Positions 3,704 to 24,213 of a DNA stretch of 64,000 nucleotides are shown here, piece after piece (positions within the stretch are counted from its first letter, which is position 1; each line of letters opens with the position of its first letter). This stretch comes from an uncultured Verrucomicrobiae bacterium (GTDB lineage Bacteria > Verrucomicrobiota > Verrucomicrobiia > Chthoniobacterales > Chthoniobacteraceae). Both the position numbers and the translations under genes were made by a program. The stretch covers positions 192,001 to 256,000 of the forward strand of contig CAVYKI010000002.1 in assembly GCA_963769025.1 (NCBI GenBank). The letters run 5' to 3'. The notes under the pieces were generated by a model. It saw nothing but the letters and a program-made list of their open reading frames with translations, ran no database searches and had not been told where the DNA came from.

Positions 3704-4379
3704 ATGCCACAGATTTTTCCTCGCGGCAGTAACTTTGTCCCTCTGAAAATCGCCATCGTCCTCGGGGCGTTGGCGACGGGGGCGTTCGGTGCGTTTTGGT
3801 ATTACTGGACGCCGAAGTACACGCGCGTCGGGTACCAGCCCGCGCAGCCGATTCCATTTTCCCACAAGATCCACGCAGGACAGCTCCAGATTGATTGCCG
3901 CTATTGCCACAGCTTTGTGGAGACGGCGTCGCATTCGAACATTCCCTCGGCGCAGGTCTGCATGAGCTGCCATTCGCAGGTGCAGAAGGACAACCCGAAG
4001 CTGGAGCCGCTCCGCAAGGCGTGGGAGACTGGCCAGCCGGTGAAGTGGGTGCAGATTCACAAGACGCCCGACTACGTGTATTTCAACCACGCGGTGCACA
4101 TCAACCGCGGCGTCTCGTGTGTGAGCTGCCACGGTCGCGTGGACCAGATGGACGAGGTTTACCATGCCGAATCGCACGCGATGAAATTCTGCCTCGACTG
4201 CCACCGCGCGCCGGAGAATGGGTTTGCGTCCTCTCGACAAGGTGACCGACTTGGGATGGACCGCGACGCCGAAGGGCAAGGAATCCAAGCAGCAGGCGCA
4301 GCTTGATCTGGGTAACGAACTTAAAAACCAGCGCGGAGTGAATCCCCCCGTCGCCAACTGTGCTGGGTGCCACCGATGA
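3704..4379 (+). CDS. actA: ACIII pentaheme cytochrome c subunit; frameshifted between ~4220 and 4340
   Basis: N-terminal TM, QPIPFSHKIH, CRYCH, CMSCH, CVSCH, CLDCH; fifth motif CAGCHR* at 4359-4379 in a shifted frame. Confidence 0.9.
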
Positions 4380-7300
4380 GCAAACGCATTCTCAATCACC
4401 CGCCCGAAACGCAGACCGGCCCGAAATACTGGCGCAGCCTCGGCCAGGTCGCGGACACACCGGAATTCAAGTCGTGGGTGAACCGCGAATTCCCCGAGGG
4501 AGCCTCGGAGGCGAACATCGAAACGAGCCGCCGCGGCTTCATGAAATACATGGCTGCGAGCGCCGCGCTCTCGGGCCTTTCGCTCAGCGCCTGTCGTCGG
4601 GAGGAAAAACAGCTCGTGCCGTTTTCGCGCGGCGTGGAGTGGAGTGTCCCGGGTAAGGCGCTTTTCTACGCGACATCGCGTCCTCACCGCCGTGGCGCAC
4701 AGCCGCTCGTCGTCGCGACGTACGACGGACGTCCGACGAAAGTGGAAGGCAATCCCTTTCACCCGGCGAGCAAGGGTGCGACGGACATTCACAGCCAGGC
4801 ATCGCTGCTTGATCTGTATGACCCGGATCGTTCGCGGCATTTCCGCCACGCTGGTGCCGAGGTGCAGGAAAAGGACTTTGTCGCCGCGCTGGAGGCGCTG
4901 GTAAAGGAGGCTGGGGATGGCAGTGGCGTTGCATTTCTCACCGAGCATTTCAATTCGCCGACCTTCCACCGCCTGAAGGATCAGGTCGCTGCGAAGTTGC
5001 CCAAGGCCCTCTGGGCTGACTACGAGCCGCTCGGCGGCGAGGAGGCCCGCAATGCACAGGAAGCGGCATTCGGACAGGGCATGCGTGCCGTGCCGAACCT
5101 CGAAAAGGCGGACGCGATTCTCGCGCTCGACTGCGATTTCCTCGGCTTTGATGAAGGCACGCTCGAAGGCATCCGCGCATTCTCGCAGCGGCGGTCGCCC
5201 GAGCAGAAGATGAACCGCCTTTACGTCGTCGAGAACCGCTACACGGTCACCGGCGGCATGGCGGATCACCGGCTGCGCGTGCAGGCGAGCGCGGTCGGCG
5301 CCGTTGCGCGGCAGCTTGCCGAGCACATCGCGAACAAGACCGGCGACGCATCGCTGAAGTCGGTGGTCGCGAAATTCCCGGCGGCTTCCCCTTTCACCGC
5401 GACGCAGGGGAAATGGATCACCGAGACGGCGGAGGATCTCATTGCAAAGAAGGGTGCGGCGCTCGTGCTGGTTGGCTACCGACAGCCGGCGGTCGTGCAG
5501 GCGCTCGTGCATGCGATGAATGCGGCGCTCGGCGCGCTGGGGAACACGGTTTCGGGGAGGAAGAGTTCGCGCAAGCCGGGTTCGAACATCGGTGATTTGT
5601 CGAAGGCCATCGCGGCCGGGAACGTCAAGACCCTCTTCATCCTCGGCGGAAATCCCGCGTTCAACGCACCGGCGAATCTGAAATTTGGCAGGCTCCTGCA
5701 GAACGTGAAGACCGTGATTCGCCACGGAATCTACGAGGATGAGACGAGCGTCTCGGTGGATGAGGACGGCAACTCGCGGTGGGTGAAGTGGCACGTCCCG
5801 GCGGCGCATTACCTCGAAGCATGGGGCGACGGACGCGCGACCGACGGCAGCCTCGTCTCGCAGCAGCCGATGATTCTCCCGCTCCACGGCGGATGGTCGG
5901 AGATTCAGTTGCTCAATTTCATCGCCACCGGGAAGCTGAGCGACGGGCTCGAACTCGTGCAGGCGACGTTTAAGGAAGTCGCGCGCGGGATCGACACGGA
6001 GTCGTGGGCGAAATTCCTGCATGACGGATTCCTCGCGGGCAGCCAGGCCGGGCGCGAGCCGCTCAGCTTCAATGCTGCACCGGTCGCGGAGCTTGCCGCG
6101 ACGTTCCATCCCGGCACGGGAATGGAAGTCGTCTTCGTGCCTTGCGCGAAGGTGGATGATGGCCGCTATGCGAACAACGGCTGGATCCAGGAATTGCCGG
6201 ACCCGGTCACGAAGGTCACATGGGACAACGTCGCGATGATCAGCCCCGCGACGGCGAGGGAACTCGGACTTGAGGCGAAGCAGGGGAATGGCGCATTTGT
6301 TTTCGACAACGGCGCATGGCTTGGCATCGACGTGAATGGGGGAACGCTGGAAATCCCGGCGCTCATCATTCCGGGTCACGCGGATAACAGCATCACGATC
6401 GCCGTCGGCTACGGCCGCACATTCGCGGGCCGCGTCGGCGGACGCGAGGGCAACTACATGTCGCACGGCGGGCTTTTCGCCGAGTACACGGGCGTCGGTT
6501 TCAACGCCTATAAGCTGCGGACCTCGGCTGCGCCCTACATCGCGACCGGCGCGAAGGTTCGCACGATCGACCGCAAGGCGTATCCCGTCGCCATCACTCA
6601 GGAACACGGCGCGCTCGAAGGCCGCGGTGCGGACGTCATTCGCGAGGCCACGGCGGAAACGCACAAGCACGAGCCGGGCTTCGCAAAGGACGAGCACTGG
6701 CTGCATGAGCGGGGCGCGCTGGATGCCCACGCGGAACGGCGGGACAAGAAGGGCTACCCGGTTCCTAACAGCGCCTACTCGCATCCCGAACTGACCGATA
6801 AGGATCATCAGTGGGGGATGGCAATGGACCTGAGCATCTGCACCGGCTGCTCGGCGTGCATGATCGCGTGCCAGAGCGAAAACAACATCCCGGTCGTCGG
6901 TAAGGAACAGGTCATCGAAGGCCGCGAAATGCACTGGATCCGCATGGACCGCTATTTCGTGAGCGACATGAACACGCGGGACAAGACGCTGGACATCGCC
7001 GAACCGCGCATGGTCATGCAGCCGATGCCCTGCCAGCACTGCGAAAACGCACCGTGCGAGACTGTCTGCCCGGTAAACGCAACCGCCCACAGCGACGACG
7101 GTCTGAACGTGATGGCCTACAACCGCTGCATCGGCACGCGGTATTGCGCGAACAACTGCCCCTTCAAGGTCCGCCGCTTCAACTTCTTCGACTTCAACGA
7201 GCGCCAGAAGGACAAATACTTCCGCTGGAATCTCATCAACGAGAAGGGCATGGCCGACACGCTCAAGCTCTCGAAGAATCCGAACGTCACCGTCCGCATG

Positions 7301-7645
7301 CGCGGCGTGATGGAAAAATGCACGTTCTGCGTGCAGCGTATCCAGGAGGCGAAGATCGCCGGCAAGGTGAAGGCGAAGGACACGAACAAGGTGCAGGTGC
7401 CCACCGACAGCTTCCAGACCGCGTGCCAGCAGGTGTGCCCGACGAACGCCATCGTCTTCGGCAACCTCAAGGATCCAAAGAGTGCCGTGAACAAGACGAA
7501 GGACAACCCGCGCGACTACCGCCTGTTCGACTACATCGGCGTGAATGCGCGCGTGAGCTACCTCGCCCGCGTGATGAACCCGAACCCGAAGATGCCCGAC
7601 GTCCCGAAGGACGGCGTGACCCATAAGGAAGGAGGGCACGCCTGA
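4376..7645 (+). CDS. actB: ACIII subunit B (molybdopterin-oxidoreductase-like domain plus Fe-S domain), Tat lipoprotein
   Basis: YWRSL...REF, SRRGFMK plus LSAC lipobox, [10 protein letters not shown], Cys motifs [41 protein letters not shown]. Confidence 0.95.
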
Positions 7646-9105
7646 TGTCCGACACCATCCATGAATCCGAAGACGGCGTGGTGCGCCTCTATTGCCCGCC
7701 GGAACTCCGCCGCGAACCGCTCGTCACCAACGATCGCAGCTTCAACTGGATCACCGAAAAGGTCTCCGTCATCTGCGAGGAAAAGACCCGCGCGTGGTGG
7801 TGGATTGCGTTCCTCATTTTCAGCCCCATCGCACTCCTCGTGCCGACGCTGCTCGGCTATCAGGTTTCCAACGGTGTCGGCGTCTGGGGTGAAAACCAGC
7901 CGTTTGGCTGGGCGTGGGACATCACGAACTTCGTCTTCTGGATCGGCATCGGCCACGCCGGAACGCTGATCTCGGCGATCCTTTTCCTCACGCGCCAGAA
8001 ATGGCGCACGTCCATCAACCGCGCCTCCGAGGCGATGACGCTCTTCGCCGTGATGTGCGCCGGTCTCTATCCCGGCTTCCACGTCGGTCGCGTGTGGAAG
8101 GCGTGGTACCTTTTCCCGATCCCGAACTGGAACGGGCTCTGGCAAAACTACCGTTCGCCGCTGCTGTGGGACGTGTTCGCAGTCTCGACGTATTTCACGG
8201 TGTCCGTGCTGTTCTGGTACGTCGGCCTCATCCCCGACCTCGCCACGCTCCGCGACCGTGCGAAATCGAAAATCAAACAGTGGGCCTACGGCATCGCAGC
8301 CGTCGGCTGGCGCGGCGGCAACCGCCACTGGCAGCACTACGAGATGGCCTACATGGTCCTCGCCGGCCTCTCGACGCCGCTGGTGCTCTCGGTTCACTCC
8401 ATCGTCTCCTTCGACTTCGCCACGTCGATCGTCCCCGGCTGGCACACGACGATTTTCCCGCCCTACTTCGTCGCGGGCGCAGTCTTCGGCGGCTTTGCAA
8501 TGGTGCTCACGCTCATGCTTCCCGCGCGGCTTTTGTATCCGCAGCTCGATGACATGGTGACGCGGAACCACGTGGACAAGATGGCGAAGATCATCCTGCT
8601 CACCGGTTCCATCGTCGGCTACGCCTACCTGATGGAGCTTTTCATCGCGCTCGTGTATTCCGGGCACTTCTACGAATACAACGCCTTCTACAACCGCGCG
8701 ACCGGCTGGTATGCCTGGCACTACTTCGCGATGATGTTCTGCAACGTCATCACGCCGCAGATTTTCTGGTTCAAGTCGATGCGTCGGAATTACATCGTCG
8801 TATTCATCGCCTGCCAGTTCGTGAATGCGGGCATGTGGTATGAGCGCTTCGTCATCATCGGCACCACGCTTGCGCAGGACTTCCTGCCATCGTCGTGGGG
8901 ACATTACACTCCGTCGTGGGTCGAGGTGTTCACGTTCATCGGCACGTTTGGATTCTTCATCACGGCGTTCCTGCTCTTCATGCGCTTCCTGCCGATGATT
9001 TGCGCCTTTGAGGTGAAGGCCGTGACGCCAGCCGCCGACCCGCACCATGATCCGAAGGGCGGACACGGGGGCCCAGAGCCGAAGGAGGCGGCGCTCACTC
9101 ACTAG
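7645..9105 (+). CDS. actC: ACIII NrfD-like quinol-oxidising membrane subunit
   Basis: [51 protein letters not shown]. Confidence 0.95.
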
Positions 9106-9107
9106 CC

Positions 9108-9674
9108 ATGACTGAATCCTTCAAGCGCCTTTTTGCCGTCGGGGCCGAGTTCGACAGCCCTCACGCGCTCTACCACGCGGCGGAAAAAGTCCGCGACGCC
9201 GGCTACACGGTCTGGGACTGCCATTCGCCCTTCCCGGTCCACGGATTGGACAAGGCCATGGGCCTGAAAAAATCCTGGCTTAGCGCATTCATCTTTGTGT
9301 GCGGCTTCACGGGTTTCGTCACCGGACTGGCGCTGGTGACGATTACCAGCTTCGGAATCTATCCGATCATCGTGAACGGCAAACCGACAGACTGGGCAAA
9401 CGGACTTCGCGCGCTGCAGTTCTTCTTCCCGGTGATGTATGAGCTGACGATTCTCTTCGCCGCCTTCGGTGCGACCTTCGGCATGATTTTGCGCAACGGC
9501 CTGCCGCGGCTGCATCATCCGCTCTTCAACTGGAGCCGGTTCTCGAAAGTCACCGACGACAAGTTCTTCATCATCATCGAGGCGCGCGACCCGTTGTTTT
9601 CCGACGCGAAGACGAAGGCGCTCCTGAGCGAAGTCGGCGGCAAACACGTAACGGAGGTCTTCGACCACGACTAG
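9108..9674 (+). CDS. actD: ACIII subunit D (DUF3341)
   Basis: SPFPVHGLD, YPIIVNGKP, PVMYELTILFAA, TDDKFFI; operon position. Confidence 0.92.
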   Translation: MTESFKRLFAVGAEFDSPHALYHAAEKVRDAGYTVWDCHSPFPVHGLDKAMGLKKSWLSAFIFVCGFTGFVTGLALVTITSFGIYPIIVNGKPTDWANGLRALQFFFPVMYELTILFAAFGATFGMILRNGLPRLHHPLFNWSRFSKVTDDKFFIIIEARDPLFSDAKTKALLSEVGGKHVTEVFDHD

Positions 9675-9677
9675 GCC

Positions 9678-10367
9678 ATGCTGAAAGTATCCTTTGGAAT
9701 CATCATCATCCTTGCAGTCATCGGCATCGGCCTGGCCGGCTTCCGTGGCGACAAGATGAGCCACACGCCGGTCGAGTGGTTCAACGACATGGCCCACCAG
9801 CCCAAGTACGAGGCGCAGCACCGCAGCGGATTTTTCAACGACACCCGCGCCGCCCGGTTGCCTGTCGCCGGCACCGTGCCGATGGGCTTCAATCTTCCCG
9901 GCCGCTATTTCCAGACCGAGGGGGACAATCTCGTGAACGGCTCGGGCGGCTTTTCGAACCGGCCGGACTATTACAACACCGGCCGCATGGGCGACGTGTA
10001 TGGCGACGGCATCCCGGACAAGCTCGCCGCACGCGGCGCGGAACTCCTCGCCCGCGGCCACCAGCGCTACGACATTTACTGCACGATTTGCCACGGCGCG
10101 GCGGGGCAGGGGAATGGCGTCATCAAGAGCTTCGGCCTCGTCACCGTGCGCCCGCTCATCGATGAGCTGCTTCGCGCACAGCCCGACGGGCAGATTTACA
10201 ACACCATCGTCCACGGGAAAAACACCATGGGCGCCTATGGCCCGGTCATTTCGGTCGAGGATCGCTGGGCGATCGTGGCCTACGTGCGCGCATTGCAGCA
10301 GGCTGCGGGCGGAAAACTCGCGGACCTCCCCGAGGCCGAGCGAAAGAAACTTCAGGAGCAGAAATGA
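9678..10367 (+). CDS. actE: ACIII monoheme cytochrome c subunit E
   Basis: DMAHQPKYEAQ, PVAGTV, CTICHG, NTMGAY, DRWAIVAYVRALQ. Confidence 0.92.
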   Translation: MLKVSFGIIIILAVIGIGLAGFRGDKMSHTPVEWFNDMAHQPKYEAQHRSGFFNDTRAARLPVAGTVPMGFNLPGRYFQTEGDNLVNGSGGFSNRPDYYNTGRMGDVYGDGIPDKLAARGAELLARGHQRYDIYCTICHGAAGQGNGVIKSFGLVTVRPLIDELLRAQPDGQIYNTIVHGKNTMGAYGPVISVEDRWAIVAYVRALQQAAGGKLADLPEAERKKLQEQK

Positions 10368-11550
10368 GCCATCCCATTCACATCCCGCAGGCCGAGCAGT
10401 TTGACGCAAAGAAGGGCGTCCAGCTCAAGAACGCCTTCCTTGGGGCGGCCGTGATCGGACTGACAGGCGCGGCGGTGACCTTTTTCGCCAACCGCGCGCT
10501 CTTCGCCCACGTGTGGCTGTTCGCCTTCATGTATTTCTTCACGGTGCTGTGCGGCTGTTTCTTCTGGAACTGCCTGCATCACGCGACCGACTCGGAGTGG
10601 TCGGTGGTGATCCGTCGCCAGATCGAGAACCTCTCGTCGCTCCTGCGCTACATCGCGATCTTCTTCATCCCGATCGCGCTGAGCGTGGCCATCCTTTACG
10701 CGTGGTTTCACCGCCGCCGCTGTGATGCCCGCCAGCAAGGCGCTCTACCTGAACAAGCCGTTCTTCTGGGCCCGGGCCGTCGCATTCTTCGCCCTGCTAT
10801 TCCTCCTGTCGCGCATCCTGCGCAACCGCAGCATGGCGCAGGACAAGGACGGCGCATCGGCACACACTTTCACGATGCGGAAGTTCGCGATCGCCGGCAT
10901 CCCGACGCTCGCGATCTGCCTGACGTTCTGCGGGCATCGACTGGCTCAAGGCCCTCAATTACCACTGGTTCTCGACGATGTGGGGCGTCTACCTCTTCGC
11001 GGGCGCGGCCGGCGCTTCGATGTCGCTCATCGTGCTCACCGTGTCGTGGCTGAAAAAACTCGGCTACCTGAAGGTCGTCACCGCCGAGCACTATCACGTG
11101 ATGGGCAAGTTCATGCTGACGTTCACCGTCTTCTGGGCCTACATCGGCTTCTCGCAATACATGCTCATCACCTACGCGAACCTGGATGAGGAGACGATTT
11201 ACTTCCGCGTCCGCAATACCGCCGGCTGGAATTACGTGAGCCATTTCCTCGTCTTCGGGCGTTTCTTCTTCATGTTCGTCCCGCTGCTCTTCCAAGGCAC
11301 GAAGAAGTCGAAGCTCATCAACTACTGCGCCGCGTGGATTCTTTTCATGCAGTTCGTGGACATCTACCTCATCGTGATTCCCGAGTGGAGCCCGGTCGGA
11401 TTCTCGTTTCGCGCATTGCTCGCCTCGATATTCCCGTGGCTCGGAATCGGCGGCTGCCTGGGACTGCTCTTCCTGAAGACCATCGGGCAAGGCTACCTTT
11501 TCCCGACGAAGGATCCCCGCCTCGCCGAGTCGCTGAAACTTACCAACTGA
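10364..11550 (+). CDS. actF: ACIII membrane subunit F; frameshifts near ~10715 and ~10930
   Basis: WSVVIRRQIE, KALYLNKPFF, HWFSTMWG, FWAYIGFSQYMLITYANLDEE, PTKDPRL across three frames. Confidence 0.88.
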
Positions 11551-11551
11551 C

Positions 11552-15858: not shown

Positions 15859-15874
15859 CATTCCAATCCCGATC

Positions 15875-16354: not shown

Positions 16355-16366
16355 CCCAACACGACC

Positions 16367-18282
16367 ATGGCTCACGCCGCAGAAGCACACACGCAGGAAG
16401 GCCACGCCGACCACGGGCACCACGACCACCACGATCCCGGGTTCTGGCGCAAGTGGGTCTTCTCCACCGATCACAAGATGATCGGTATTCAGTACACCGT
16501 CACCGGGCTCGCATTCCTGTTTTTCGGATTCGGGCTGATGATGGTGATGCGCTGGTCCATCGCGCATGGTGCGGAAGCGCTGCCAGGCACGTGGGGTTCG
16601 ATGCTCCATGCCATTTTCGGCGATGCGGTATTCGACAAAGTCGTCGGACCGGATGGAAAAGCCATCGTCGGCTATTCGCTATCAACGCAGGGCTACAACG
16701 TTTTCGGAGCCATGCACGGCACCATCATGGTGTTCTTCGGCATTGTGCCGATCGCTTTCGCGGGCTTCGCGAATTTCGTGCTGCCGCTTCAGATCGGCGC
16801 CGTCGGACATGGCGTTTCCGCGCATCAACATGGCGAGCTTCTGGTGCTTCTTCATCAGTTGCGTCATCATGGTGTGGAGCTTTTTCGTGGAGGGCAGCGC
16901 GGCAAAATCCGGCTGGACGAACTACCCGCCACTCGCCGGCGTCGCCGACTCCGGACCGACCATTCATCACGTTTTCAACGGCGGCACGCTCTGGCTGATC
17001 GGCATGGTGTTCAACATCACCGCGTCGCTGCTCGGCTCGATCAATTTCATCGCCACCGTCGTCCAGCTCCGCGCGCCGGGCATGACGTGGGGCCGCCTGC
17101 CGTTCTTCGTCTGGGCACAGTTCATCACCGCCTATCTCCTCCTGCTCGCCTTCCCGCCGCTCGAGTCCGCGGCGATCATGAATCTCTTCGACCGCGTATT
17201 CGGTTCGAGCTTCTTCATGCCTACCGGCCTCGTCGTAAATGCGATGGGCTCCGACGGCCAGCCGTTGCTGTTCTCCGGCGGTGGCAGCCCGATGCTCTGG
17301 CAGCATCTTGTTCTGGTTCCTCGCGCATCCGGAGGTGTACGTGCTCATCCTGCCGGGCATCGGCATGGTCACCGAGATCATCGCGTGCAACAGCCGCAAG
17401 CCCATCTGGGGCTACAAGTCCATGGTCGGCGCGATTTTCGTGCTCGCGTTCCTCTCGCTTCATCGTCTGGGCGCACCACATGTACATGACGGGCATGGGC
17501 CCGAAGGTCTCCGCGTTCTTCCAGACGACCACGATCATGATCTCGATCCCGTCGGTGATTCTGCTGACGGCACTGCTGATCTCGCTGTGGGGAGGATCGA
17601 TCCGTTTCAATACGCCGATGCTCTTCGCCACGGCGTTTCTGCCGATGTTCGGCATCGGAGGGCTCACCGGCATCCCGCTCGCATTCAATGCCGTGGATCT
17701 CTACATGCACGATACCTACTACGTCATCGCGCATTTCCATTACATCGTCGCGCCGGGCACCATCTTCGCGATCTTCGCAGGCATCTATCACTGGTTTCCC
17801 GAAGGCAACGGGGCGCATGATGAACGAAACGCTCGGCAAGCTGCACTTCTGGGGCTCGCTGATTGCCATCAATCTGCCTCTTCGTCGCCGATGTTCCTGC
17901 AGGGCATGGCCGGTGTGCATCGCCGCTGGTGGGATGGCGGAAGCGCGGCTTATTCCGCGACCGTCCAGTCGGTGCTCCATTGGAATCAATTCTCATCCAA
18001 TGCCGCGTGGGCGCTTGGCCTGGTGCAGTTGATTTTCGTGTTCAATTTCTTCTGGAGCATCGTTCCGCGGGCGCAAGGTGCCGAATGACAATCCGTGGGA
18101 CGCGACCACCCTCGAGTGGGACACGCCGACGCCGCCTCCGCACGGCAACTTCATCAAGCCCATCACCGTCTATCGCGGCCCGTACGAATACAGCGTGCCC
18201 GGCGCGGACAAGGACTTCACGCCACAGTCCGAGCCGCCCGCCGGAACGCGCCGCACCAGCCGCGGCCCCTGCGCACGCGTAG
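16367..18282 (+). CDS. coxA: Cytochrome c oxidase subunit I, A-family; multiple frameshifts
   Basis: STDHKMIG, MHGTIMVFF, DMAFPRIN, HPEVY, WAHHMY, HDTYYVIAHFHY, NPWDATTLEW. Confidence 0.93.
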
Positions 18283-18303
18283 GCAGGAATACTTTCGCGA
18301 CTC

Positions 18304-19228
18304 ATGGAAATCCCATACACAGTTACGCCGCGTCCCGACACCGGCCTTACCAATCCGAAGCTCGGCATCTGGCTGTTCCTCGCCTCGGAAGTCATGCTCT
18401 TCGGCGGACTCTTCGCCGGCTACATCTTCATGCGCCTCGGCGCGGAACCGTGGATGTGGCCGCAAGGCTGGCTGAACGTTCCCGTCGGCACGTTCAACAC
18501 CTTCATCCTCATCGCATCGTCCGTGACCGTCATCCTGTCATGGGAGGCGCTGAAGATGCGGAATTACAAGGCGTTCAAGACATGGCTTGTTGATCACCTG
18601 GCTCTGCGGCATCGCGTTCCTTGCGGTGAAACTCAGCATCGAGTGGCCCGCCAAGTTCAGCCATTTCGGTGCCTACATCAAAAAGGAGGCCGCGGAGAAG
18701 TACGAACCTTACCTCGGTAACGATGACGGCAAGGACAGCGCCGGCAATTTCGAGAGCGGCTACCTCGCACGCAAAGGATATCCCCGTCTCTTCATCAGCG
18801 GCCACCCGGAAAATTGGGCGGATGTCTCGAACCCAAAGGTGGACAAAATCGTCCTCGAGGCCATCGACGAGGAGAACAGCACACCGAGATCCGCCGACCA
18901 CGATCGCGCCCGTTTCATCCCGCGCGACATGGTGCACCTGCACGAAGGCCATAAGGTCGTCCTGCACAAATCCGATTTGGTGAACGGCTACGGCCCCTTC
19001 TACCCGCGGCTGAACACATACCTCGCATGCTACTTCATGATCACCGGCCTGCACGGCCTGCACGTGCTCGGCGGCGTGCTCGTCTTCATGTATTTCTGGG
19101 GCCCAGGCTCGAAGCTCTTTAAGACCAACCCCGAGCAACTCAGCAACCGAATCGAAGTCGCCGGCCTCTTCTGGCATCTGGTGGACTTGGTCTGGATCTT
19201 CGTCTTCCCGATTTTCTATCTCCTTTGA
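18304..19228 (+). CDS. coxC: Cytochrome c oxidase subunit III with a large loop insertion; frameshift near ~18590
   Basis: KLGIWLFLASEVMLFGGLF, NTFILIASS, TGLHGLHV, GLFWHLVDLVWIF. Confidence 0.92.
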
Positions 19229-19230
19229 AA

Positions 19231-19665
19231 ATGGCCGACCATCATTCACCCGCTCCAGCTACGACACCGCAAGCCGCACACGCTGCGCCCGATGGGCATG
19301 CTTCCCCTGGCCACGGCGACTACTTGCATCACGTCCGTCCCTATCTGCTGGTCGGAGCTGCACTGTTTGTTTTCACCATCATCACCGTGGGGCTGTCCTA
19401 CGTGAGATTTGAGGACGCCGCGATTTTCCGCTGGGTGTTCGCGATCATCGGCATCCACGGCCACGGCATCAACATCACCATCGGCCTGATTGTCGCCGCA
19501 TTCAAAGTCTGCCTCGTCGGAGCGTGGTTCATGCACTTGAAATCGGAAAAGGGCGAAATCTGGCGCCCGCTGATCTTCACCTTTATCTTTTGCTTCGGAT
19601 TGTTCGCTTTGTTCCTGCTGGCCCATTCGGATCCGATTTACTCGACCATCTTCACGCAGCACTGA
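19231..19665 (+). CDS. coxD: Cytochrome c oxidase subunit IV family
   Basis: IAAFK-type KVCLVGAWFMHLKSE motif, three TMs, follows subunit III. Confidence 0.85.
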   Translation: MADHHSPAPATTPQAAHAAPDGHASPGHGDYLHHVRPYLLVGAALFVFTIITVGLSYVRFEDAAIFRWVFAIIGIHGHGINITIGLIVAAFKVCLVGAWFMHLKSEKGEIWRPLIFTFIFCFGLFALFLLAHSDPIYSTIFTQH

Positions 19666-19850
19666 TGTCGCTAAAAATCTTCCACATCTTTTTCATCCTC
19701 CTGAGCTCCGCCCTTTGCGGGGGCGTGGCGTGGTGGTGTTTTGACAATGGTGTGGCAAAACTTTACGGCTATCTCTTCGCGGCAGCCGCGGCGCTGCTTC
19801 CCGTGTATGGTGCCTGGTTCCTCTGGAAGACCCGAAAACTCATCCTATGA
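19665..19850 (+). CDS. 61-aa two-TM protein
   Basis: MSLKIFHIFFILLS...WFLWKTRKLIL; start and stop overlap both neighbours. Confidence 0.7.
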   Translation: MSLKIFHIFFILLSSALCGGVAWWCFDNGVAKLYGYLFAAAAALLPVYGAWFLWKTRKLIL

Positions 19851-20113
19851 GGCGTCCCTTCCCGATCCTGTTGGCTGTCACGTTCGCCACGATCCCCGCA
19901 AGAGCGTCCGCCTGCGCAGTCTGCATGGGCGATCCGAATTCGTACCTCGCCGATGCAACCAACAGCACCATCTGGATACTGCTCGGTCTCGTGGGGTTCA
20001 TCTTCGTGGCCACCGGGCTGACCGCCCTTTTTCTCTGGTATCATGCGCGAACGCCGCTCCCGCCGCATGTCCAGTTGGTAGAAAACCTCACAACCGAACC
20101 CGAGGAATGCTGA
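19847..20113 (+). CDS. 88-aa exported CxxC peptide with a C-terminal TM anchor
   Basis: Signal peptide ...ARASA|CAVCMGDP, then a hydrophobic helix; translationally coupled. Confidence 0.75.
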   Translation: MRRPFPILLAVTFATIPARASACAVCMGDPNSYLADATNSTIWILLGLVGFIFVATGLTALFLWYHARTPLPPHVQLVENLTTEPEEC

Positions 20114-20114
20114 A

Positions 20115-20999
20115 ATGACACTCGCTGCCCTGTCTGACTATTTCGATCTCAACAAGCTCATGGGCATGCTCCCGAACCACTCGGAGCATGGCAAGGAGAT
20201 CGATCACATGCTGAACTTCTGCCACTGGTTCATGCTGCTTCTCTTTGTGGGGTGGGGGAGTTTCTACCTCTACACGATCTGGCGCTTCCGCAAATCCCGG
20301 CACCCGCGTGCGGACTACCACGGCGTGCGCAGCCACCTCTCGACGCACTTGGAAGTTGGCGTCGTCATCATCGAGGCCGTCATCCTGCTCGGCTTCGCGC
20401 TGCCGCTTTGGGGCAAGCGTGTGAACGAGATTCCCGATGACGAAAAGGATGGCGCGCTGAAGGTCCGGGCAATGGGCTATCAGTTCGGATGGTATTTCCA
20501 CTACGCCGGTGTGGACGGCAAGTTCGGCCGCCAGCACATCCGCTTCATCCAGAGTCCGAACGTCCTCGGCCTCGATCCTACCGATCCGGACGGTGCGGAC
20601 GACATCGTCGTCGCGGACAACCAGCTCCATTTGATCAATCACAAGGCGACCGTCGTCCGCGTGAGTTCGCGCGACGTGATCCACGGCTTTGCACTTCATG
20701 AGATGCGCATCCAGCAGGATGCCATCCCCGGCACCGAGGCACCGCAATGGTTCCGCCCGGTTTCGACGGGCGAGTGGCAGATCATTTGCGCGCAGCTTTG
20801 CGGCGCGGGTCACTCGACCATGCAGGCAAAGTACATCGTCGAAGATCAAAAGACATTCGACGAGTGGTATGCGGGTCAGCACGACTTCACTCAGGGCTAC
20901 CTTAAGAGGCAGGCTGAGGAGGTCCGGAAAAAGGCCGCCGAGGAGCAGGCTGAAATCGCGAAGAAAGCCGCCGAACACGGCGAAAAGAAGGCGCATTGA
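20115..20999 (+). CDS. coxB: Cytochrome c oxidase subunit II (CuA)
   Basis: Two TMs, QFGWYFHY, DVIHGF, CAQLCGAGHSTM. Confidence 0.93.
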   Translation: MTLAALSDYFDLNKLMGMLPNHSEHGKEIDHMLNFCHWFMLLLFVGWGSFYLYTIWRFRKSRHPRADYHGVRSHLSTHLEVGVVIIEAVILLGFALPLWGKRVNEIPDDEKDGALKVRAMGYQFGWYFHYAGVDGKFGRQHIRFIQSPNVLGLDPTDPDGADDIVVADNQLHLINHKATVVRVSSRDVIHGFALHEMRIQQDAIPGTEAPQWFRPVSTGEWQIICAQLCGAGHSTMQAKYIVEDQKTFDEWYAGQHDFTQGYLKRQAEEVRKKAAEEQAEIAKKAAEHGEKKAH

Positions 21000-21147
21000 G
21001 CGCGTCTTCACGCGCATTTTTGCGAAGCGAGCGGCGCCCTTGTACCGTTCCATCGCGCACACGCCGCCTGCGACACGCCGTCAGGCGCGATAGCGCGCAA
21101 CTGCTCCCTTTCCGCACCCGGTTCCTCGGATAGACTCCGCCGTTCAT

Positions 21148-22296
21148 ATGGATCATCCGCCAACCAACCCGTGGATTTCACGACTCGCGAAGGTCTGCGT
21201 GTTGCTGACCTTTTTCCTCATCTTCCTCGGAGCCATCGTCACGACCAGCGGGGCAGGGATGGCCGCGCCAGCGGCACCTCATGTGGATGGCACTTTGCTC
21301 AACCCCACCAGCCCGGTGACGCAGACCGCGTGGTGGAAAGACCCGGCGCTGCTGAAGGAACATACGCACCGCCTGGTCGCGATGAGCCTCGGCCTCGGCA
21401 TCGGCGCGCTCGCTGCCGCGCTCTGGCGCAACTGGCTCGCATTTGCCGTCTCCCTCCTCTTCATGGGCGCTGCGGAAGGCCTCCGTTCCCTGAAGCTCGA
21501 CCCCGCGCTTATCGCCCAACTCCGCATCTGGCCCGCGATGATTCTCTTCATCACGCTGCTCATCTTCGGCGCACGACGGCGCGGTATAAGGCCAACCACG
21601 GAGCAGTGGATGGCGCTAATCGCGTACATCGCCGCATGCGCGCAGGCGCTGCTCGGCTCGCTTCGCGTGAATTTCGAAACGGCCGGAAGCATCGCCCTCG
21701 CGACGAACATCCGCACATTCCACGGAATCTTCGCGCAGGCGTTCCTCGCCATGCTTGTCATTCTGGCCGCGCGACTCTCGCCGTTTTGGGGCCGACTCTG
21801 CTCGCCGCTGCCGGTGGCGGCAAAAATCCGACGGCTGGCTGTGGCTGCGATGGTCCTCTACTTTGCTCAGATCACCTGCGCGGCATATCTCCGCCACCGG
21901 GGCCTCGGTCTCGCGATCGCCAGCTGGCCCGCGGCGCAGGCCGATCCGGGATGGAGCGTCAGCGGGAGCTGGCTGCCGGCTGTCTGGTCGCACGTCACCG
22001 GCATTCACTTTCTGCACACCCGCGTCCTTCCGGTGCTGCTGCTCGGGCATCTCGTCGGCATGGGCATCATCCTGATCAAGCGTGCACGGCCAGAACCGCT
22101 GCTCTCGCGTCTCGGGCTTCCGCTTGCGGCGATCACCGCCGTGCAGTTCCTCCTCGGTGTCCTGGTCGTCGTGCTCTACATCCACGGTGTCCCGCGCAAT
22201 CCGCACATCACCAATACCCACGTCCTCACCGGTGCGCTGCTCGTCGCGCTCATCGCGCTCATTTTCACCAGGGCAGGGCGGCTCCGCGCGGCATGA
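21148..22296 (+). CDS. ctaA: Heme A synthase (CtaA/Cox15 family)
   Basis: LGAIVTT, EHTHRL, QALLG, FHGIFAQ, HFLH, QFLLG, THVLTG. Confidence 0.85.
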   Translation: MDHPPTNPWISRLAKVCVLLTFFLIFLGAIVTTSGAGMAAPAAPHVDGTLLNPTSPVTQTAWWKDPALLKEHTHRLVAMSLGLGIGALAAALWRNWLAFAVSLLFMGAAEGLRSLKLDPALIAQLRIWPAMILFITLLIFGARRRGIRPTTEQWMALIAYIAACAQALLGSLRVNFETAGSIALATNIRTFHGIFAQAFLAMLVILAARLSPFWGRLCSPLPVAAKIRRLAVAAMVLYFAQITCAAYLRHRGLGLAIASWPAAQADPGWSVSGSWLPAVWSHVTGIHFLHTRVLPVLLLGHLVGMGIILIKRARPEPLLSRLGLPLAAITAVQFLLGVLVVVLYIHGVPRNPHITNTHVLTGALLVALIALIFTRAGRLRAA

Positions 22297-23192
22297 GCAC
22301 GCCAGCCGCCAGCGCCATCCCGCATGCGAACGCCGAGCCCGGCATACTCGCCGATCTCCTCGATCTCACCAAGGCGCGCCTCAACCTGCTGGTGCTCATC
22401 ACGACCTTCGTCGGTTATTGGATGGGATCCTCCGGCGCGATGAACTGGCAGCGTCTCATCTGCGCGATGCTCGGCACTGCGCTCACCGCCGCATCTGCCG
22501 CCGCGCTGAACCAGCTTTGGGAGCGCAAGGTGGACGCGCTCATGGCACGCACCGCGAGCCGGCCGCTTCCTGCCGGTCGCATGAAAGGCGGCATCGCGTT
22601 CGCGCTCGGCCTCGCGCTGGGCACCGCGGGCACCGCCCTGCTCTGGTTTGCCGTAAACTCGCTGAGCGCTCTGCTCGCACTGGGAACGCTCGTCATTTAC
22701 GTGCTGATTTACACGCCGATGAAGCGCCGCACCGCACTTTGCACACTCGTCGGCGCGGTGAGCGGAGCCATCCCGCCGGTCGTCGGATGGGCGGCCGCAA
22801 ATCCCGATCTCACGCTCGGGGCATGGGTGCTCTTCGCCGTGCTGTTCGCGTGGCAGATGCCGCACTTCCTCGCCATCGCATGGATGTATCGCGAGCAGTA
22901 CCGCGGCGCTGGTTTCGTCATGCTCAAGCGCGACGACGAGACCGGGTTCACGACGGCGGCGACGAGTTTCGTGTTTACGCTCCTGCTCACGGCCGCGACG
23001 TTGGTGCCGTTCGATGCCGGGACGGCGGGTGGCACGTATCTCGGCGGCGCGCTGCTCATCAACAGCGTCTTCTTTCTCGCAGCCCTTCATTTCTTTGCCG
23101 ACCGCTCACGCCCGGTCGCGCGCCGGTTGTTTTTCGCGAGCATCATCTACCTCCCGCTCATCCTCGGGCTCATGGTCTTCACCAAGGAATGA
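22293..23192 (+). CDS. ctaB: Heme O synthase
   Basis: LTKARL, DALMARTASRPLPAG, YTPMKR, GAIPPVVGW, WQMPHF. Confidence 0.95.
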   Translation: MSTPAASAIPHANAEPGILADLLDLTKARLNLLVLITTFVGYWMGSSGAMNWQRLICAMLGTALTAASAAALNQLWERKVDALMARTASRPLPAGRMKGGIAFALGLALGTAGTALLWFAVNSLSALLALGTLVIYVLIYTPMKRRTALCTLVGAVSGAIPPVVGWAAANPDLTLGAWVLFAVLFAWQMPHFLAIAWMYREQYRGAGFVMLKRDDETGFTTAATSFVFTLLLTAATLVPFDAGTAGGTYLGGALLINSVFFLAALHFFADRSRPVARRLFFASIIYLPLILGLMVFTKE

Positions 23193-23770
23193 ACGCACAC
23201 CGTTTCACGGCCATCGCCGCCGCAATTTTTCTCGCCGGCTGCACGGAGGCAAGGCCGCTGCCGAAACGCTTCGAGGTCCCAAAATTCACCCTTGCCGAGC
23301 GCAGCGGGCAACCGTTCGATTCCACGTCGCTGCTCGGCAAAGTCTGGGTCGCGGATTTCTTTTTTACCTCGTGCCCCGGCACCTGCCTCCTGCTGAGCAA
23401 CCGCATGAAGGAAATCCACGCGGCCACGGCGAAAGGCGGCGGCGTCCATTTCGTATCCATCAGCACCGATCCTGAAACAGATACGCCCGAGGTGCTCCGC
23501 AACTATGCCGCAAGCCTGGGGGCCGACGAGCGTTGGTCGTTTCTCACCGGACCGCGCCAGGCGATTTTCGAACTGAGCATTGGCGGATTCAAACTCGCGC
23601 TCGCGGATGCCGACGGCGTGGACGTGAAGGAAAAGATCATCCACAGCACGAAGCTTGTCCTTGTGGACCGGCGGGGCTGGATTCGCGACTACTACGACGG
23701 TGTCGGCGACAAGCCCGGTGAAAAGGAACGCCTGCTCGCTGACATCAAACGCCTTCTCCAAGAGCCATGA
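23189..23770 (+). CDS. SCO1/SenC copper chaperone, lipoprotein
   Basis: LAGC lipobox, FFFTSCPGTC, DPETDTP, IHS. Confidence 0.92.
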   Translation: MNAHRFTAIAAAIFLAGCTEARPLPKRFEVPKFTLAERSGQPFDSTSLLGKVWVADFFFTSCPGTCLLLSNRMKEIHAATAKGGGVHFVSISTDPETDTPEVLRNYAASLGADERWSFLTGPRQAIFELSIGGFKLALADADGVDVKEKIIHSTKLVLVDRRGWIRDYYDGVGDKPGEKERLLADIKRLLQEP

Positions 23771-24213
23771 CCGCACTCGAAAGTCTTCCAGCCATCAACG
23801 CCTCGCTCAACGCCACGTGCGGCATCCTTTTGGTGTTTGGCATCTGGCTGATCAAGACCGAGCGCAAGCAGGCGCACGGCATGGTCATGGGCGCGGCATT
23901 TGCCGTTTCGTGCATTTTTCTCGGGTTCTACATCTGGCACAAATTCGAGCTGCACGCCGCGACGGGACGCTGGAACACGACATTCCCCGGACCGCAGCCA
24001 TGGAGGACGATCTACCTCGTGATGCTTGCGACGCACGTCGTGCTCGCGATGGCCGTGCCGCCGCTGGCGATTGTCACCATGCGCCACGCGCTCGCCGGGC
24101 GTTACGAAGCGCATCGCAGGCTCTCAAAGGTGACGTTTCCCGTCTGGTTCTATGTGAGCGTCACCGGCGTGCTGGTGTATTTCTTTTTGTACCGCTGGTT
24201 TCCAGTCGAGTGA
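23767..24213 (+). CDS. DUF420 (CtaM-like) oxidase assembly membrane protein
   Basis: LPAINASLN, H...M, THVVLA, H...PVWFYVSVTGV. Confidence 0.9.
   Translation: MTALESLPAINASLNATCGILLVFGIWLIKTERKQAHGMVMGAAFAVSCIFLGFYIWHKFELHAATGRWNTTFPGPQPWRTIYLVMLATHVVLAMAVPPLAIVTMRHALAGRYEAHRRLSKVTFPVWFYVSVTGVLVYFFLYRWFPVE

Follow-up and report, generated by a model that had tools for sequence, protein, structure and literature searches.

Gene content and organisation of the locus

The window, i.e. the whole stretch of 64,000 nucleotides that was analysed, carries 21 co-oriented genes on the + strand between positions 3704 and 24213, which fall into three modules: ACIII, a cbb3-like module, and an aa3 oxidase with biogenesis proteins. 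The genes follow the order actA-F, ActG-position gene, ccoN-like, ccoO-like, diheme c, monoheme c, coxA-C-D, two microproteins, coxB, ctaA, ctaB, sco and DUF420. The predicted features are listed below, with L009 denoting the locus of a relative used for comparison.

actA, 3704..4379, + strand: pentaheme cytochrome c with N-terminal membrane helix; Pfam Cytochrome_C7
actB, 4367..7645, + strand: molybdopterin-like and Fe-S subunit, intact; Pfam Fer4_7, Fer4_11
actC, 7645..9105, + strand: NrfD-like quinol-binding membrane subunit, intact; Pfam NrfD E 2.7e-23; 93% identity to L009
actD, 9108..9674, + strand: intact; Pfam ActD E 8.5e-58
actE, 9678..10367, + strand: monoheme cytochrome c, intact; Pfam Cytochrome_CBB3, Cytochrom_C; one CXXCH in L009
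actF, 10364..11550, + strand: by position the second NrfD-like membrane subunit; interrupted by bases inserted at 10706 and 10925
ActG-position gene, 11552..12391, + strand: one N-terminal membrane helix followed by a stretch of low complexity; bases inserted at 11582 and 11783
ccoN-like, 12388..13917, + strand: heme-copper-oxidase fold lacking the ligands of the hemes and CuB; bases inserted at 12718, 12831 and 13054
ccoO-like, 13918..14633, + strand: membrane-anchored monoheme c, CIYCH, Cys in place of the axial Met (SKCPPY); one base lacking near 14055; Pfam FixO
diheme cytochrome c, 14630..15858, + strand: N-terminal membrane helix, occupying the ccoP place of ccoNOQP; one base inserted at 14817, the frame changing again near 15390-15407
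monoheme cytochrome c, 15875..16354, + strand: periplasmic, c552-like, Leu at the axial Met position, intact
coxA, 16367..18282, + strand: A1-type subunit I; at least 8 window-only indels in 16804-18063; Pfam COX1
coxC, 18304..19228, + strand: subunit III of the five-helix type, with ~110 aa inserted; one additional base at 18590; Pfam COX3
coxD, 19225..19665, + strand: subunit IV; Pfam COX4_pro; TIGR02229 above cut-off
microprotein of 61 aa, 19665..19850, + strand: two hydrophobic helices; 77% identity to an L009 ORF; present in most loci
microprotein of 88 aa, 19847..20113, + strand: signal-like N-terminus, CAVC motif, one further helix; conserved in most loci
coxB, 20115..20999, + strand: subunit II, CuA site, no fused cytochrome c; Pfam COX2
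terminator-like hairpin, 21000-21015, + strand: directly 3' of the coxB stop; consensus match only
ctaA, 21148..22296, + strand: heme A synthase; Pfam COX15-CtaA
ctaB, 22293..23192, + strand: heme O synthase; Pfam UbiA E 1.7e-51
sco, 23189..23770, + strand: copper chaperone for CuA; Pfam SCO1-SenC
DUF420 membrane protein, 23767..24213, + strand; Pfam DUF420 E 1.8e-36

The gene content and order given in the first-pass annotation were borne out by the Pfam search of the + frames of the window and by the intact proteins of L009, which are collinear with window positions 3704-23186 (mapping of proteins to the window; a tblastn HSP for actB). Pfam domains were detected in the ACIII part for cytochrome c7 (ActA), 4Fe-4S dicluster (ActB), NrfD (ActC), ActD and cytochrome c (ActE), in the cbb3-like part for pieces of COX1 (CcoN-like), FixO and three cytochrome c domains, and in the oxidase part for COX1 (CoxA), COX3, COX4_pro, COX2, COX15-CtaA, UbiA, SCO1-SenC and DUF420.

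The same annotation had regarded the locus as one operon. All 21 genes have the same orientation, and at 12 junctions neighbouring genes overlap or abut by 0-4 bases. A single transcript is questioned by the hairpin in the 149-base gap between coxB and ctaA, and the region upstream of actA yielded no sigma-70-like promoter.

The ACIII module is complete, consisting of ActABCDEF and the ActG-position protein. The genes for ActB to ActE, like those for CoxD to DUF420, are intact in the window copy. ActB matches its L009 counterpart in a single tblastn HSP (1100 aa, 83% identity), while the L009 ortholog of ActA, which has five CXXCH motifs and no sixth heme, maps as the frame pieces 3704-4279 and 4221-4376, with one window-only inserted base near 4220. 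Three frame pieces of actF match a 398-aa protein of L009, and no Pfam or NCBIfam match was obtained for this gene. The ActG-position gene, pieces of which match a 277-aa L009 protein, also lacks a family match in Pfam and NCBIfam and is fast-diverging (70% identity in the close clade).

The aa3 oxidase

In CoxA all six His as well as E286, Y288 and D132 are retained in 62-63 of 63 orthologs. The K-channel Lys, the alteration of which had been noted at first pass, is indeed missing in all 63: the K362 position is occupied by Leu in 58, Ile in four and Ala in one, and the window itself has Leu (K-channel region in its own frame: ...SIPSVILLTALL...). The TIGR02891 score of CoxA is 555 bits against a cut-off of 671. 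Judged by its residues, the oxidase is otherwise canonical. The coxC gene matches NCBIfam CtaE and CyoC in two stretches. The CuA motif of CoxB (H...CxQxCGxxHxxM) is intact in 53/53 orthologs, and the protein contains no CXXCH motif. Neither microprotein matched a family in Pfam or NCBIfam; in the Atlas the 88-aa protein was found in unnamed clusters only, most commonly from Verrucomicrobiota and Acidobacteriota.

The CcoN-like protein

The CcoN-like protein is homologous to CcoN of P. stutzeri (3mk7_A; phmmer E 2e-23) and is predicted to keep its fold: the AF2 model (pLDDT 87.2, pTM 0.89) has 3mk7_A as its best PDB match, with TM scores of 0.81/0.89. In its own frames the window copy reads GRVWPAY, AWYQNG, LTAMTRLSGG and HGQMHM at the altered sites. 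Among 76 orthologs from different species the ligand His is kept at H60 in none, at H207 in five, at H257 in none, at H258 in three and at H345 in one, and the cross-link Tyr (Y251) is present in two. Only the position equivalent to H347 often retains its His (51/76). The mapping of the ligands was the same when rechecked profile against profile by hhalign with 33 canonical CcoN of Gemmataceae (probability 100, 482 columns).

With the ligand His lost at five of six positions, the module is incapable of canonical O2 reduction, which upholds the earlier view that it is not a second canonical oxidase. A profile search for the wider family gave 2587 matches at E<=1e-3; among the 150 best representatives, 135 had a length of at least 440 aa. 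Two or fewer of the six His are present in 128 of the 135, and four have the complete set together with the Tyr. The CcoN proteins of Gemmataceae planctomycetes, in which the six His and the Tyr are all present, are the nearest canonical relatives. Proteins of 861-2455 aa included no fusion of the CcoN-like protein with subunits of ACIII or Cox, which is a point, though weak as evidence, against the bridging role discussed below.

Cytochromes of the cbb3-like module

The CcoO-like protein (one CXXCH), the diheme cytochrome (two) and the monoheme cytochrome (one) add four c hemes between the ACIII and the oxidase genes. The closest PDB entries to these extra cytochromes are Thermus c552 and the c domain of a fused Cu nitrite reductase. 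The diheme protein is weakly CcoP-like (3mk7_C, E 4e-4), its domains being nearer to c552-type cytochromes than to CcoP. The monoheme protein possesses a signal peptide and lacks a membrane helix; in the window it carries CMACH and, at the Met site, NNILIAV.

The first-pass annotation had also reported the loss of the axial Met in CcoO and in a cytochrome c. Both changes are real, being found in the window frames and in intact orthologs, but they are clade-specific rather than general. The axial position of the CcoO-like protein, mapped by alignment to 3mk7_B and 8smr_F, is Met in 49, Cys in 22 and His in five of 77 orthologs, and the Met position of the monoheme cytochrome holds Met in 25 and Leu in 16 of 41.

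Conservation across relatives

The search for relatives found 116, from which 80 loci were retained, all labelled as Verrucomicrobiota MAGs. The gene order recurs in this survey: ActF lies upstream of the CcoN-like gene in 63/63 loci with at least 3 kb of upstream sequence, the CcoO-like gene downstream of it in 76/76 loci, and CoxA downstream in 58/59 loci with at least 5 kb of downstream sequence. Since the order is identical in 58/59 and 63/63 loci, the arrangement is far beyond chance expectation, and the superoperon is conserved across Chthoniobacterales (Verrucomicrobiota).

In the close clade dN/dS is 0.127 for the CcoN-like protein, 0.124 for CoxA, 0.131 for ActB, 0.173 for the CcoO-like protein and 0.119 for the monoheme cytochrome. 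The cbb3-like module is intact and under purifying selection in the relatives, and the value for the CcoN-like protein makes the former label "degenerate" misleading. The four altered residues noted earlier (CcoN His, CcoO Met, cytochrome c Met, CoxA Lys) were read in the window's own frames, and close orthologs do not have canonical ligands, as the closest relatives (~90% amino acid identity) carry all four substitutions. The ligand loss is a family trait and not a decay of the window copy. We are highly confident that the operon is functional and conserved and that its CcoN homolog is ligand-less.

Frameshifts in the window copy

Comparison with five close relatives over positions 3573-20981 detected 23 window-only indels with a length that is not a multiple of three, 17 of them single-base insertions, which sit in ActA, ActF, the ActG-position gene, the CcoN-like gene, the diheme cytochrome, CoxA and CoxC. 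Their spread is uneven, with none in 4221-10705 and about 19 in 10706-18590, which counts against a simple uniform error.

Housekeeping genes elsewhere in the window are also frameshifted: ilvB lies in three frame pieces and the YoaA/DinG helicase in four, and of Hsp33 the C-terminus alone is in frame. In the broken genes of the cluster in-frame stops are confined to one CoxA HSP that crosses a misframed stretch, and dN/dS between the window and L009 is similar for the broken ActF (0.146) and CcoN-like (0.148) genes and the intact ActB (0.154). Because housekeeping genes are affected, extra stops are lacking and dN/dS is not raised, the frameshifts are very probably sequencing or assembly errors.

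Comparison with known respiratory systems

With the cbb3 oxidase CcoNOP (P. stutzeri 3MK7, P. aeruginosa 8SMR, R. capsulatus 6XKW) the module shares the CcoN fold and sequence homology, the membrane anchor, CXXCH and FixO domain of the CcoO-like protein, and a diheme cytochrome in the place of CcoP. In contrast to CcoNOP, it has neither the cross-link Tyr nor the residues that bind heme b, heme b3 and CuB, and in the window's clade Cys replaces the axial Met of CcoO. Its NCBIfam scores are far below the curated cut-offs (ccoN 122 against 583 bits, ccoO 55 against 201, ccoP, TIGR00782, 41 against 180), and the Pfam scans revealed no ccoQ, ccoH or ccoGHIS genes in the cluster.

In the ACIII-oxidase superoperons and supercomplexes (F. 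johnsoniae ACIII-aa3, R. marinus ACIII-caa3, acidobacterial ACIII-A2 caa3) the act genes are directly followed by those of an A-family oxidase, a succession that the window shares, except that four extra genes of a cbb3-derived module lie between the two complexes. In addition, ActA is without the sixth heme, CoxB without a fused cytochrome c and CoxA without the K-channel Lys. The five-helix subunit III of F. johnsoniae, as far as described (PMC8361435), resembles the window CoxC, and direct electron transfer without a soluble carrier is an idea that these systems, in the cited accounts (PMC5928083, PMC8407424), have in common with the present locus.

Within the same phylum, act genes adjoin cbb3-annotated genes in verrucomicrobial methanotrophs and Opitutaceae; the papers concerned take these genes to encode a working high-affinity oxidase, and the cited passages describe no A-family oxidase in those clusters (PMC8498564, PMC6688271). 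The altered heme-copper oxidases gNOR, nNOR, eNOR, sNOR, NOD and a putative N2O reductase (Murali et al. 2024) belong to the same superfamily, no longer have the active-site Tyr and are not O2 reductases, but these families keep both hemes and a metal site (PMC11214002), while the CcoN-like family lost five of six ligand His. A literature search found no description of such a ligand-less cbb3-like module.

Possible role of the cbb3-like module

The module may link ACIII to the oxidase as a scaffold or electron wire, a tentative proposal whose chances we put a little short of even. The basis for such bridging is the strict synteny, the lack of a fused cytochrome c on ActA or CoxB and the four extra c hemes encoded between the complexes. 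Since CoxB has no cytochrome c and ActA no sixth heme, a dedicated link would be needed, which in F. johnsoniae is described to be made by the sixth ActA heme domain and in R. marinus by the cytochrome c fused to subunit II (PMC8552683, PMC5928083). The presumably cofactor-less CcoN-like protein would then serve as a membrane scaffold holding the c-type cytochromes, which would pass electrons from ActA or ActE to the CuA site of CoxB. The module would in this way supply the linking heme c that otherwise comes from an extra ActA domain or a subunit II-fused cytochrome c, and its ancestor would have been a functional cbb3 oxidase of the PVC group that was linked to ACIII. However, the CcoO-like heme in the window's clade would be His/Cys ligated. 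The potential of such hemes is usually very low, which fits poorly with a simple downhill wire, and the missing Met in 16/41 monoheme cytochromes counts against a plain electron carrier.

Alternatively, the module could be an electron-exit accessory of ACIII alone, left over from an ancestral ACIII-cbb3 pairing and delivering electrons to soluble or loosely bound cytochromes, with the oxidase being separate and no three-part supercomplex being formed. One locus (L065) retains ACIII and the module but has lost coxA-coxB, so that the module can persist without adjacent oxidase genes, and the arrangement in the methanotrophs and Opitutaceae, the signal peptide and missing membrane helix of the monoheme cytochrome, and the hairpin and separate gene blocks are compatible with such modular use. 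Nevertheless, the truncated CtaA remnant in L065 makes its arrangement look like a secondary deletion. Taking furthermore into account that CoxA follows in nearly all loci and that an ActA without a sixth heme and a CoxB without its own cytochrome c need a dedicated link, this explanation seems rather unlikely.

The c hemes might instead have taken on a new catalytic, sensing or gating role, e.g. in the oxidation of sulfur or nitrogen compounds or in redox control, at the His/Cys CcoO-like heme and the Met-less monoheme cytochrome. His/Cys hemes are known from sulfur-oxidising and sensor cytochromes, and both variants are clade-conserved under purifying selection. Yet the ligand state differs between clades while the operon is constant, which fits tuning better than one conserved chemistry, and neither variant is coupled to the other: 11 loci combine Cys with Leu and 11 Cys with Met, and a non-Cys residue is accompanied by Leu in five and by Met in 14. 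As the Pfam and NCBIfam scans also revealed no substrate-handling gene in the cluster, we consider this improbable.

Based on its residues, the CcoN-like protein may bind one heme at the old low-spin site via Tyr and His: Tyr at the H60 position is paired with His at the H347 position in 49/76 orthologs, the window included, and the fold round the site is predicted with high confidence. It would then still be a redox protein with a b-type heme, perhaps one that relays electrons from the CcoO-like heme to the membrane interior. This appears very improbable, given that the pair is missing in 27/76 orthologs, that the wider family (the 135 of the best 150 representatives) has mostly Ala/Phe/Gln and Gln/Leu at these positions, with His in 12 and 17, and that no binuclear centre is available to take the electron.

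Finally, that the locus is merely a decaying or mis-sequenced cbb3/aa3 copy with odd residues due to damage, as the roughly 20 frameshifting indels in 3.7-18.6 kb might suggest, is hardly credible, since all four substitutions recur in intact orthologs from many species, dN/dS is 0.12-0.17 with no excess of replacement changes in the window pieces, and housekeeping genes outside the cluster are frameshifted too.

The explanation as a whole, combining a three-module superoperon, a scaffold or wire role of the cbb3-like module, its descent within the PVC group and frameshifts of technical origin, is in our estimate evenly poised between being right and wrong. The gene cluster hints at a new respiratory assembly.

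Organisation and conservation of the respiratory gene cluster

The respiratory genes of the window (G+C approximately 63%, no N) occupy the following region:
3704-24213 (+): actA to actF, the gene in the ActG position, ccoN-like, ccoO-like, diheme and monoheme cytochrome c genes, followed by cox, cta, sco and DUF420 genes

Frames between stops on the + strand of 3.5-24.5 kb were translated and the pieces scanned against Pfam. The matches appeared in the order cytochrome c7-type, 4Fe-4S dicluster protein (1092 aa), NrfD, ActD, cytochrome c, several COX1 pieces, FixO, three cytochrome c domains, a second COX1, COX3, COX4_pro, COX2, COX15-CtaA, UbiA, SCO1-SenC and DUF420, which recovers the list of 21 co-oriented genes proposed in the first-pass annotation. 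The alternative complex III (ACIII) is represented in order by the pentaheme ActA (five CXXCH motifs), the Fe-S protein ActB, the NrfD-like ActC, ActD, the monoheme ActE (one CXXCH motif) and ActF. Pfam matches cover ActA to ActE; ActF had no family match and was identified by its place upstream of the ccoN-like gene, which is kept in all 63 loci with at least 3 kb of upstream sequence.

Twelve gene junctions in the cluster overlap or abut. A terminator-like hairpin lies directly 3' of coxB and is followed by a 149-base gap up to ctaA. The assumption of a single operon is thus plausible for actA to coxB but less secure for the whole stretch. No sigma-70-like promoter was found upstream of the cluster, and Rfam and tRNA scans of the whole window gave no matches.

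Related loci were sought by searching a single genome for each species, and 80 of them were fetched. All belong to Verrucomicrobiota, mostly to Chthoniobacterales or “Spartobacteria” MAGs; the nearest relative shares approximately 92% protein and 81% DNA identity with the window, none being close enough for the same species. The ccoN-like gene was present in 80/80 loci, with the ccoO-like gene next downstream in 76/76 and coxA downstream in 58 of the 59 loci with at least 5 kb of downstream sequence. Going by gene order, the cbb3-derived module formed by the CcoN-like and CcoO-like proteins and the diheme and monoheme cytochromes c is therefore conserved and placed between the ACIII and the oxidase genes. 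The one exception, the verrucomicrobial locus L065, has lost coxA to coxB and the first part of ctaA (at 12894-13574) while ACIII and the ligand-less module are kept; this arrangement looks like a natural deletion variant.

Frameshifts in the window copy

In close relatives, for example the loci L009 and L001, each cluster gene is one intact ORF. Mapping of the relatives' proteins onto the window yielded two frame pieces for ActA, three for ActF, four for the CcoN-like protein, two for the CcoO-like protein, three for the diheme cytochrome, at least five for CoxA and two for CoxC. A six-way DNA alignment revealed 23 window-only indels with a length that is not a multiple of three in 3573-20981, of which 17 are single inserted bases; about half lie beside an identical base and none within a long homopolymer. 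The dN/dS values against L009 over the in-frame pieces of the broken genes (ActF 0.146, CcoN-like 0.148) resemble that of the intact ActB (0.154), and in-frame stops in broken genes were restricted to one CoxA HSP crossing a misframed stretch.

Three further genes of the window were found to be broken:
613-2540 (+): biosynthetic acetolactate synthase large subunit in three frames (TIGR00118 positions 1-151, 135-324 and 338-555), each shift being +1 as in the respiratory cluster
50196-51341 (+): Hsp33, approximately 68 C-terminal residues in frame (profile positions 221-288 of 297) and at least one further frameshift upstream
59895-62651 (-): YoaA/DinG-type helicase in four frame pieces (NF053712 positions 2-186, 186-292, 326-415 and 417-591)

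Programmed frameshifting or a truly pseudogenised operon appears unlikely, because insertions predominate, housekeeping genes are affected too and dN/dS is in the normal range. Taken together with the lack of any sign of relaxed selection, this makes sequencing or assembly errors the probable source of the frameshifts. The indels are clumped, with none in 4221-10705 (6.5 kb) and about 19 in 10706-18590 (7.9 kb), so that a uniform error rate is no explanation, and locally reduced coverage or polishing would account for the pattern. The sequence of the window copy is poor, and conclusions on the biology of the cluster are drawn from the intact relatives.

The window also contains the following genes outside the respiratory cluster:
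59821-60279: PIN-domain ORF at the 3' end of the helicase, accompanied by an RHH_1 match and possibly part of a toxin-antitoxin pair
32375-34020 (+): adjacent matches, their frames overlapping, to a proteasome beta-type domain (PF00227) and to the bacterial 20S alpha subunit (TIGR03691, E 2e-21); proteasomes are unusual for Verrucomicrobiota
34766-37516 (+): protein of 917 aa in which a Ser/Thr kinase domain is joined to three PEGA domains and an FGE-sulfatase domain

The CcoN-like protein

A first search retrieved 637 homologs of approximately 490-500 aa which are annotated at source as cbb3 subunit I. The homology to CcoN is supported by phmmer (one homolog against P. stutzeri CcoN, 3mk7_A, E 2e-23) and by an AlphaFold2 model built from 72 sequences (mean pLDDT 87.2, pTM 0.89), for which 3mk7_A was the best Foldseek match (E 3.8e-21, TM 0.81/0.89). 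The best solved matches were the CcoN chains of 3MK7, 9G83, 8SMR, 9G6B and 6XKW (TM 0.80-0.82 by query and 0.89-0.90 by target), and bc1-cbb3 supercomplexes containing cbb3 oxidases were among the PDB entries matched. Together these searches indicate the twelve-helix fold of heme-copper oxidases; a crude hydropathy count gave six strongly hydrophobic segments, and the AlphaFold2 model is preferred. The score against the NCBIfam model ccoN (TIGR00780) was 122 bits compared with a curated cut-off of 583.

The residues opposite the ligands of P. stutzeri CcoN are compiled below. From the 3MK7 literature we take H60 and H347 to be the ligands of the low-spin heme b, H345 that of the high-spin heme b3, H207, H257 and H258 those of CuB, and Y251 the cross-linked Tyr.

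Residues at the ligand positions of CcoN (numbering of 3MK7). Each line gives the position and its presumed role; the residue of one homolog in the phmmer alignment with 3mk7_A; the residue in the window frames; the occurrence among 76 orthologs.
H60, low-spin heme b; Y; Y; His 0/76 (Tyr 59, Phe 12, Tyr or Phe 71)
H207, CuB; G; N; His 5/76
Y251, cross-linked Tyr; S; G; Tyr 2/76
H257, CuB; T; T; His 0/76
H258, CuB; K; R; His 3/76 (Arg or Lys 73)
H345, heme b3; Q; Q; His 1/76 (Gln 51)
H347, low-spin heme b; H; H; His 51/76

Measured against a CcoN oxidase subunit, the family lacks the defining features, namely the low-spin heme b His pair, the heme b3 His, the CuB His trio and the cross-linked Tyr251. 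The replacement residues at the old ligand positions are fairly conserved in turn. An hhalign comparison with CcoN of Gemmataceae (Planctomycetes), represented by 33 canonical sequences with invariant ligand residues, returned the same residue pairs (probability 100, 482 columns, 36% identity), with the canonical H-A-H opposite Q-M-H of the CcoN-like family.

The altered His ligands noted in the first-pass annotation are thus present in the window frames as well as across the orthologs, where five of the six His occur in 0-5 of 76 sequences. Canonical ligands in close orthologs would have pointed to a decaying copy; the orthologs lack them, which argues against decay. The dN/dS values of the close clade are similar for the CcoN-like protein (0.127), CoxA (0.124) and ActB (0.131). 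A search for fused or longer CcoN-like forms (861-2455 aa) found none, which is weak evidence.

Lacking the ligands of heme b, heme b3 and CuB across 76 orthologs, the CcoN-like protein confirms the earlier view that the module is not a second canonical oxidase, and judged from these sequences it cannot be one. Binding of one heme at the old low-spin site is conceivable but unlikely; a Tyr/His pair remains there in 49/76 orthologs.

The cytochromes of the module

The CcoO-like protein has a CXXCH motif in 77/77 orthologs and one N-terminal hydrophobic helix. In the alignment with solved CcoO chains its SKCPPY stretch lies opposite SKMP.Y, the Met of which is presumably the axial heme ligand. 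According to the counts in this alignment column the axial position is occupied by Met in 49, Cys in 22 and His in 5 of 77 orthologs, with one gap. The Cys is found in the window and its clade, down to approximately 71% identity of the CcoN-like protein. The combination of membrane anchor, CXXCH and His/Met ligation expected of CcoO (FixO) is hence incomplete, and the score against TIGR00781 (CcoO) was 55 bits compared with a cut-off of 201. The His is carried by five related loci (L031, L033, L041, L047 and L051); it would give a bis-His heme and represents a third state.

In the monoheme cytochrome c the axial column contains Met in 25 and Leu in 16 of the 41 loci with a separate gene, a count that leaves out 35 loci whose best match fell inside the diheme ORF. 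The Leu occurs in the close relatives of the window and in five distant loci, and is located opposite the Met of SVMPPM in the c domain of a cytochrome-fused nitrite reductase. The substitutions of both Met ligands postulated earlier are therefore real in the window's clade, but they are no general trait, Met being retained in 49/77 and 25/41 sequences, respectively. The two variants are uncoupled (Cys with Leu in 11 loci, Cys with Met in 11, non-Cys with Leu in 5 and non-Cys with Met in 14).

The CcoO-like protein and the diheme cytochrome each have a membrane helix, and the monoheme cytochrome has a signal peptide. The nearest PDB relatives of the extra cytochromes are Thermus c552 and the c domain of the fused nitrite reductase.

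The wider ligand-poor family

A profile search of 1.84 billion representatives gave 2587 matches at E<=1e-3 and 551 at E<=1e-30. Among the best 150 of the 2587 matches, 135 have at least 440 aa; 128 of these 135 carry at most two of the six His, and all six His together with the Tyr were found in 4/135, with the limitation that the alignment was made in the fast mode of MAFFT and columns of distant members may be misplaced. In a FastTree phylogeny of these rows the four canonical sequences sit inside the ligand-poor rows. No order of events is drawn from this tree, because it lacks a root and contains numerous long branches.

The aa3-type oxidase and neighbouring small genes

As in A1-type oxidases, the six His, Tyr288, Asp132 and Glu286 of CoxA (numbering of R. 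sphaeroides) are kept in 62-63 of 63 orthologs. The K-channel Lys, the alteration of which had already been noticed in the window, is absent from all 63 orthologs: position K362 is occupied by Leu in 58, Ile in 4 and Ala in 1, and position T359 by Ser in 62/63. The odd row belongs to the locus L047, whose stretch looks misframed. The K-channel stretch of the window reads SIPSVILL. Mutation of the K-channel Lys nearly abolishes activity in the R. sphaeroides oxidase.

The neighbouring genes show the following features:
18587-19228 (+): coxC (15232-16131 in L009), encoding a five-helix type subunit III with an insertion of approximately 110 residues between the matched stretches 19-110 and 229-299; the ORFs of 49 orthologs range from 229 to 763 aa
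19665-20113 (+): two microproteins of 61 and 88 aa between coxD and coxB, the longer with a CAVC motif, present in most loci
20115-20999 (+): coxB, CuA site intact in 53/53 orthologs with the motif CxQLCG, in which Gln is invariant

Glu is usual in the CuA motif of subunit II where CoxB has Gln. Neither of the microproteins had a family match, and their look-alikes in the Atlas belong to unnamed clusters that are commonest in Verrucomicrobiota and Acidobacteriota.

Proposed electron path

Five heme motifs were identified in ActA, one in ActE and none in CoxB, and the cytochromes of the module are encoded between ActA/ActE and CoxB. Thermus c552, one of the nearest relatives of these cytochromes, donates electrons to CuA of the Thermus oxidases. 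Most likely as the simplest reading, menaquinol would be oxidised by ACIII, electrons would leave via ActA/ActE, pass over the c hemes carried by the CcoN-like scaffold and enter CuA of the aa3-type oxidase. We infer this electron path, the scaffold role and a possible physical supercomplex, synteny being the evidence that points to an association of ACIII with the oxidase. The first-pass annotation had interpreted the module as a scaffold or electron wire between the two; its premise that the module is not a canonical oxidase holds as a family trait, but the substitutions in the CcoO-like protein and the monoheme cytochrome, on which it also drew, are specific to clades and not general.

A heme with His/Cys ligation and a Met-less cytochrome fit a plain downhill wire poorly, and the c hemes of the module may therefore have a gating, sensing or catalytic role.

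A farther-reaching interpretation, which we regard as tentative and rather unlikely, would make the CcoN-like protein, as a pseudoenzyme of heme-copper fold without hemes or copper, the keystone of an obligate megacomplex uniting ACIII, a fossil cbb3 module and the aa3-type oxidase in one particle. The Met-less c552-like cytochrome, together with the module's three anchored c hemes, would then act as an adjustable wire or gate, in which the CcoO-like heme changes its axial ligand (Met, Cys or His) from lineage to lineage, and the loss of the K-channel Lys would be tolerated or compensated only inside the assembly. The family would be widespread beyond Chthoniobacterales, as judged from the 128/135 representative clusters with at most two of the six His, and many “cbb3” annotations in the PVC group would not refer to oxidases at all.

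Relation to known systems and implications

Superoperons and supercomplexes of ACIII and A-family oxidases are well known (PMC8407424, PMC8361435, PMC5928083), and ACIII beside cbb3-annotated genes has been described for verrucomicrobial methanotrophs and Opitutaceae (PMC8498564, PMC6688271). We class the present cluster as a putative ACIII-oxidase superoperon with a pseudoenzyme adaptor. In the two supercomplexes studied, the heme c that makes the link belongs to a sixth heme domain of ActA (F. johnsoniae) or to a subunit II with a fused cytochrome c (R. marinus; PMC8552683, PMC5928083). Both solutions are absent here. According to a 2024 superfamily survey, gNOR is the one heme-copper family in which conservation of the active-site histidines is not complete (PMC11214002), whereas the CcoN-like family has lost five of six His.

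In the literature passages searched, no ligand-less cbb3-derived module between ACIII and an A-family oxidase was found, and supplements (PMC5615132 Text S1, Fig. S6; PMC6688271 Table S10) may describe such clusters. These passages mentioned neither an A1-type oxidase naturally devoid of the K-channel Lys nor a K-less A-family oxidase in ACIII operons.

The CcoN-like genes are annotated at source as “cbb3-type cytochrome c oxidase subunit I”, and genome papers take such calls as high-affinity oxygen respiration (e.g. PMC6688271 and PMC8498564). For Chthoniobacterales this conclusion is probably wrong, because the CcoN-like protein lacks the catalytic ligands. The cluster can serve as nature's own test of how ACIII is connected to an oxidase without a cytochrome c of its own, and its oxidase is a natural example of the A1 type that lacks the K-channel Lys. 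Since the cluster is carried by Chthoniobacter flavus (locus L071), which is cultured, the question of the supercomplex is directly testable. With a large family under purifying selection that has lost five of the six His, the heme-copper superfamily would gain its first pseudoenzyme branch, and such a branch would show a use of the fold apart from catalysis.
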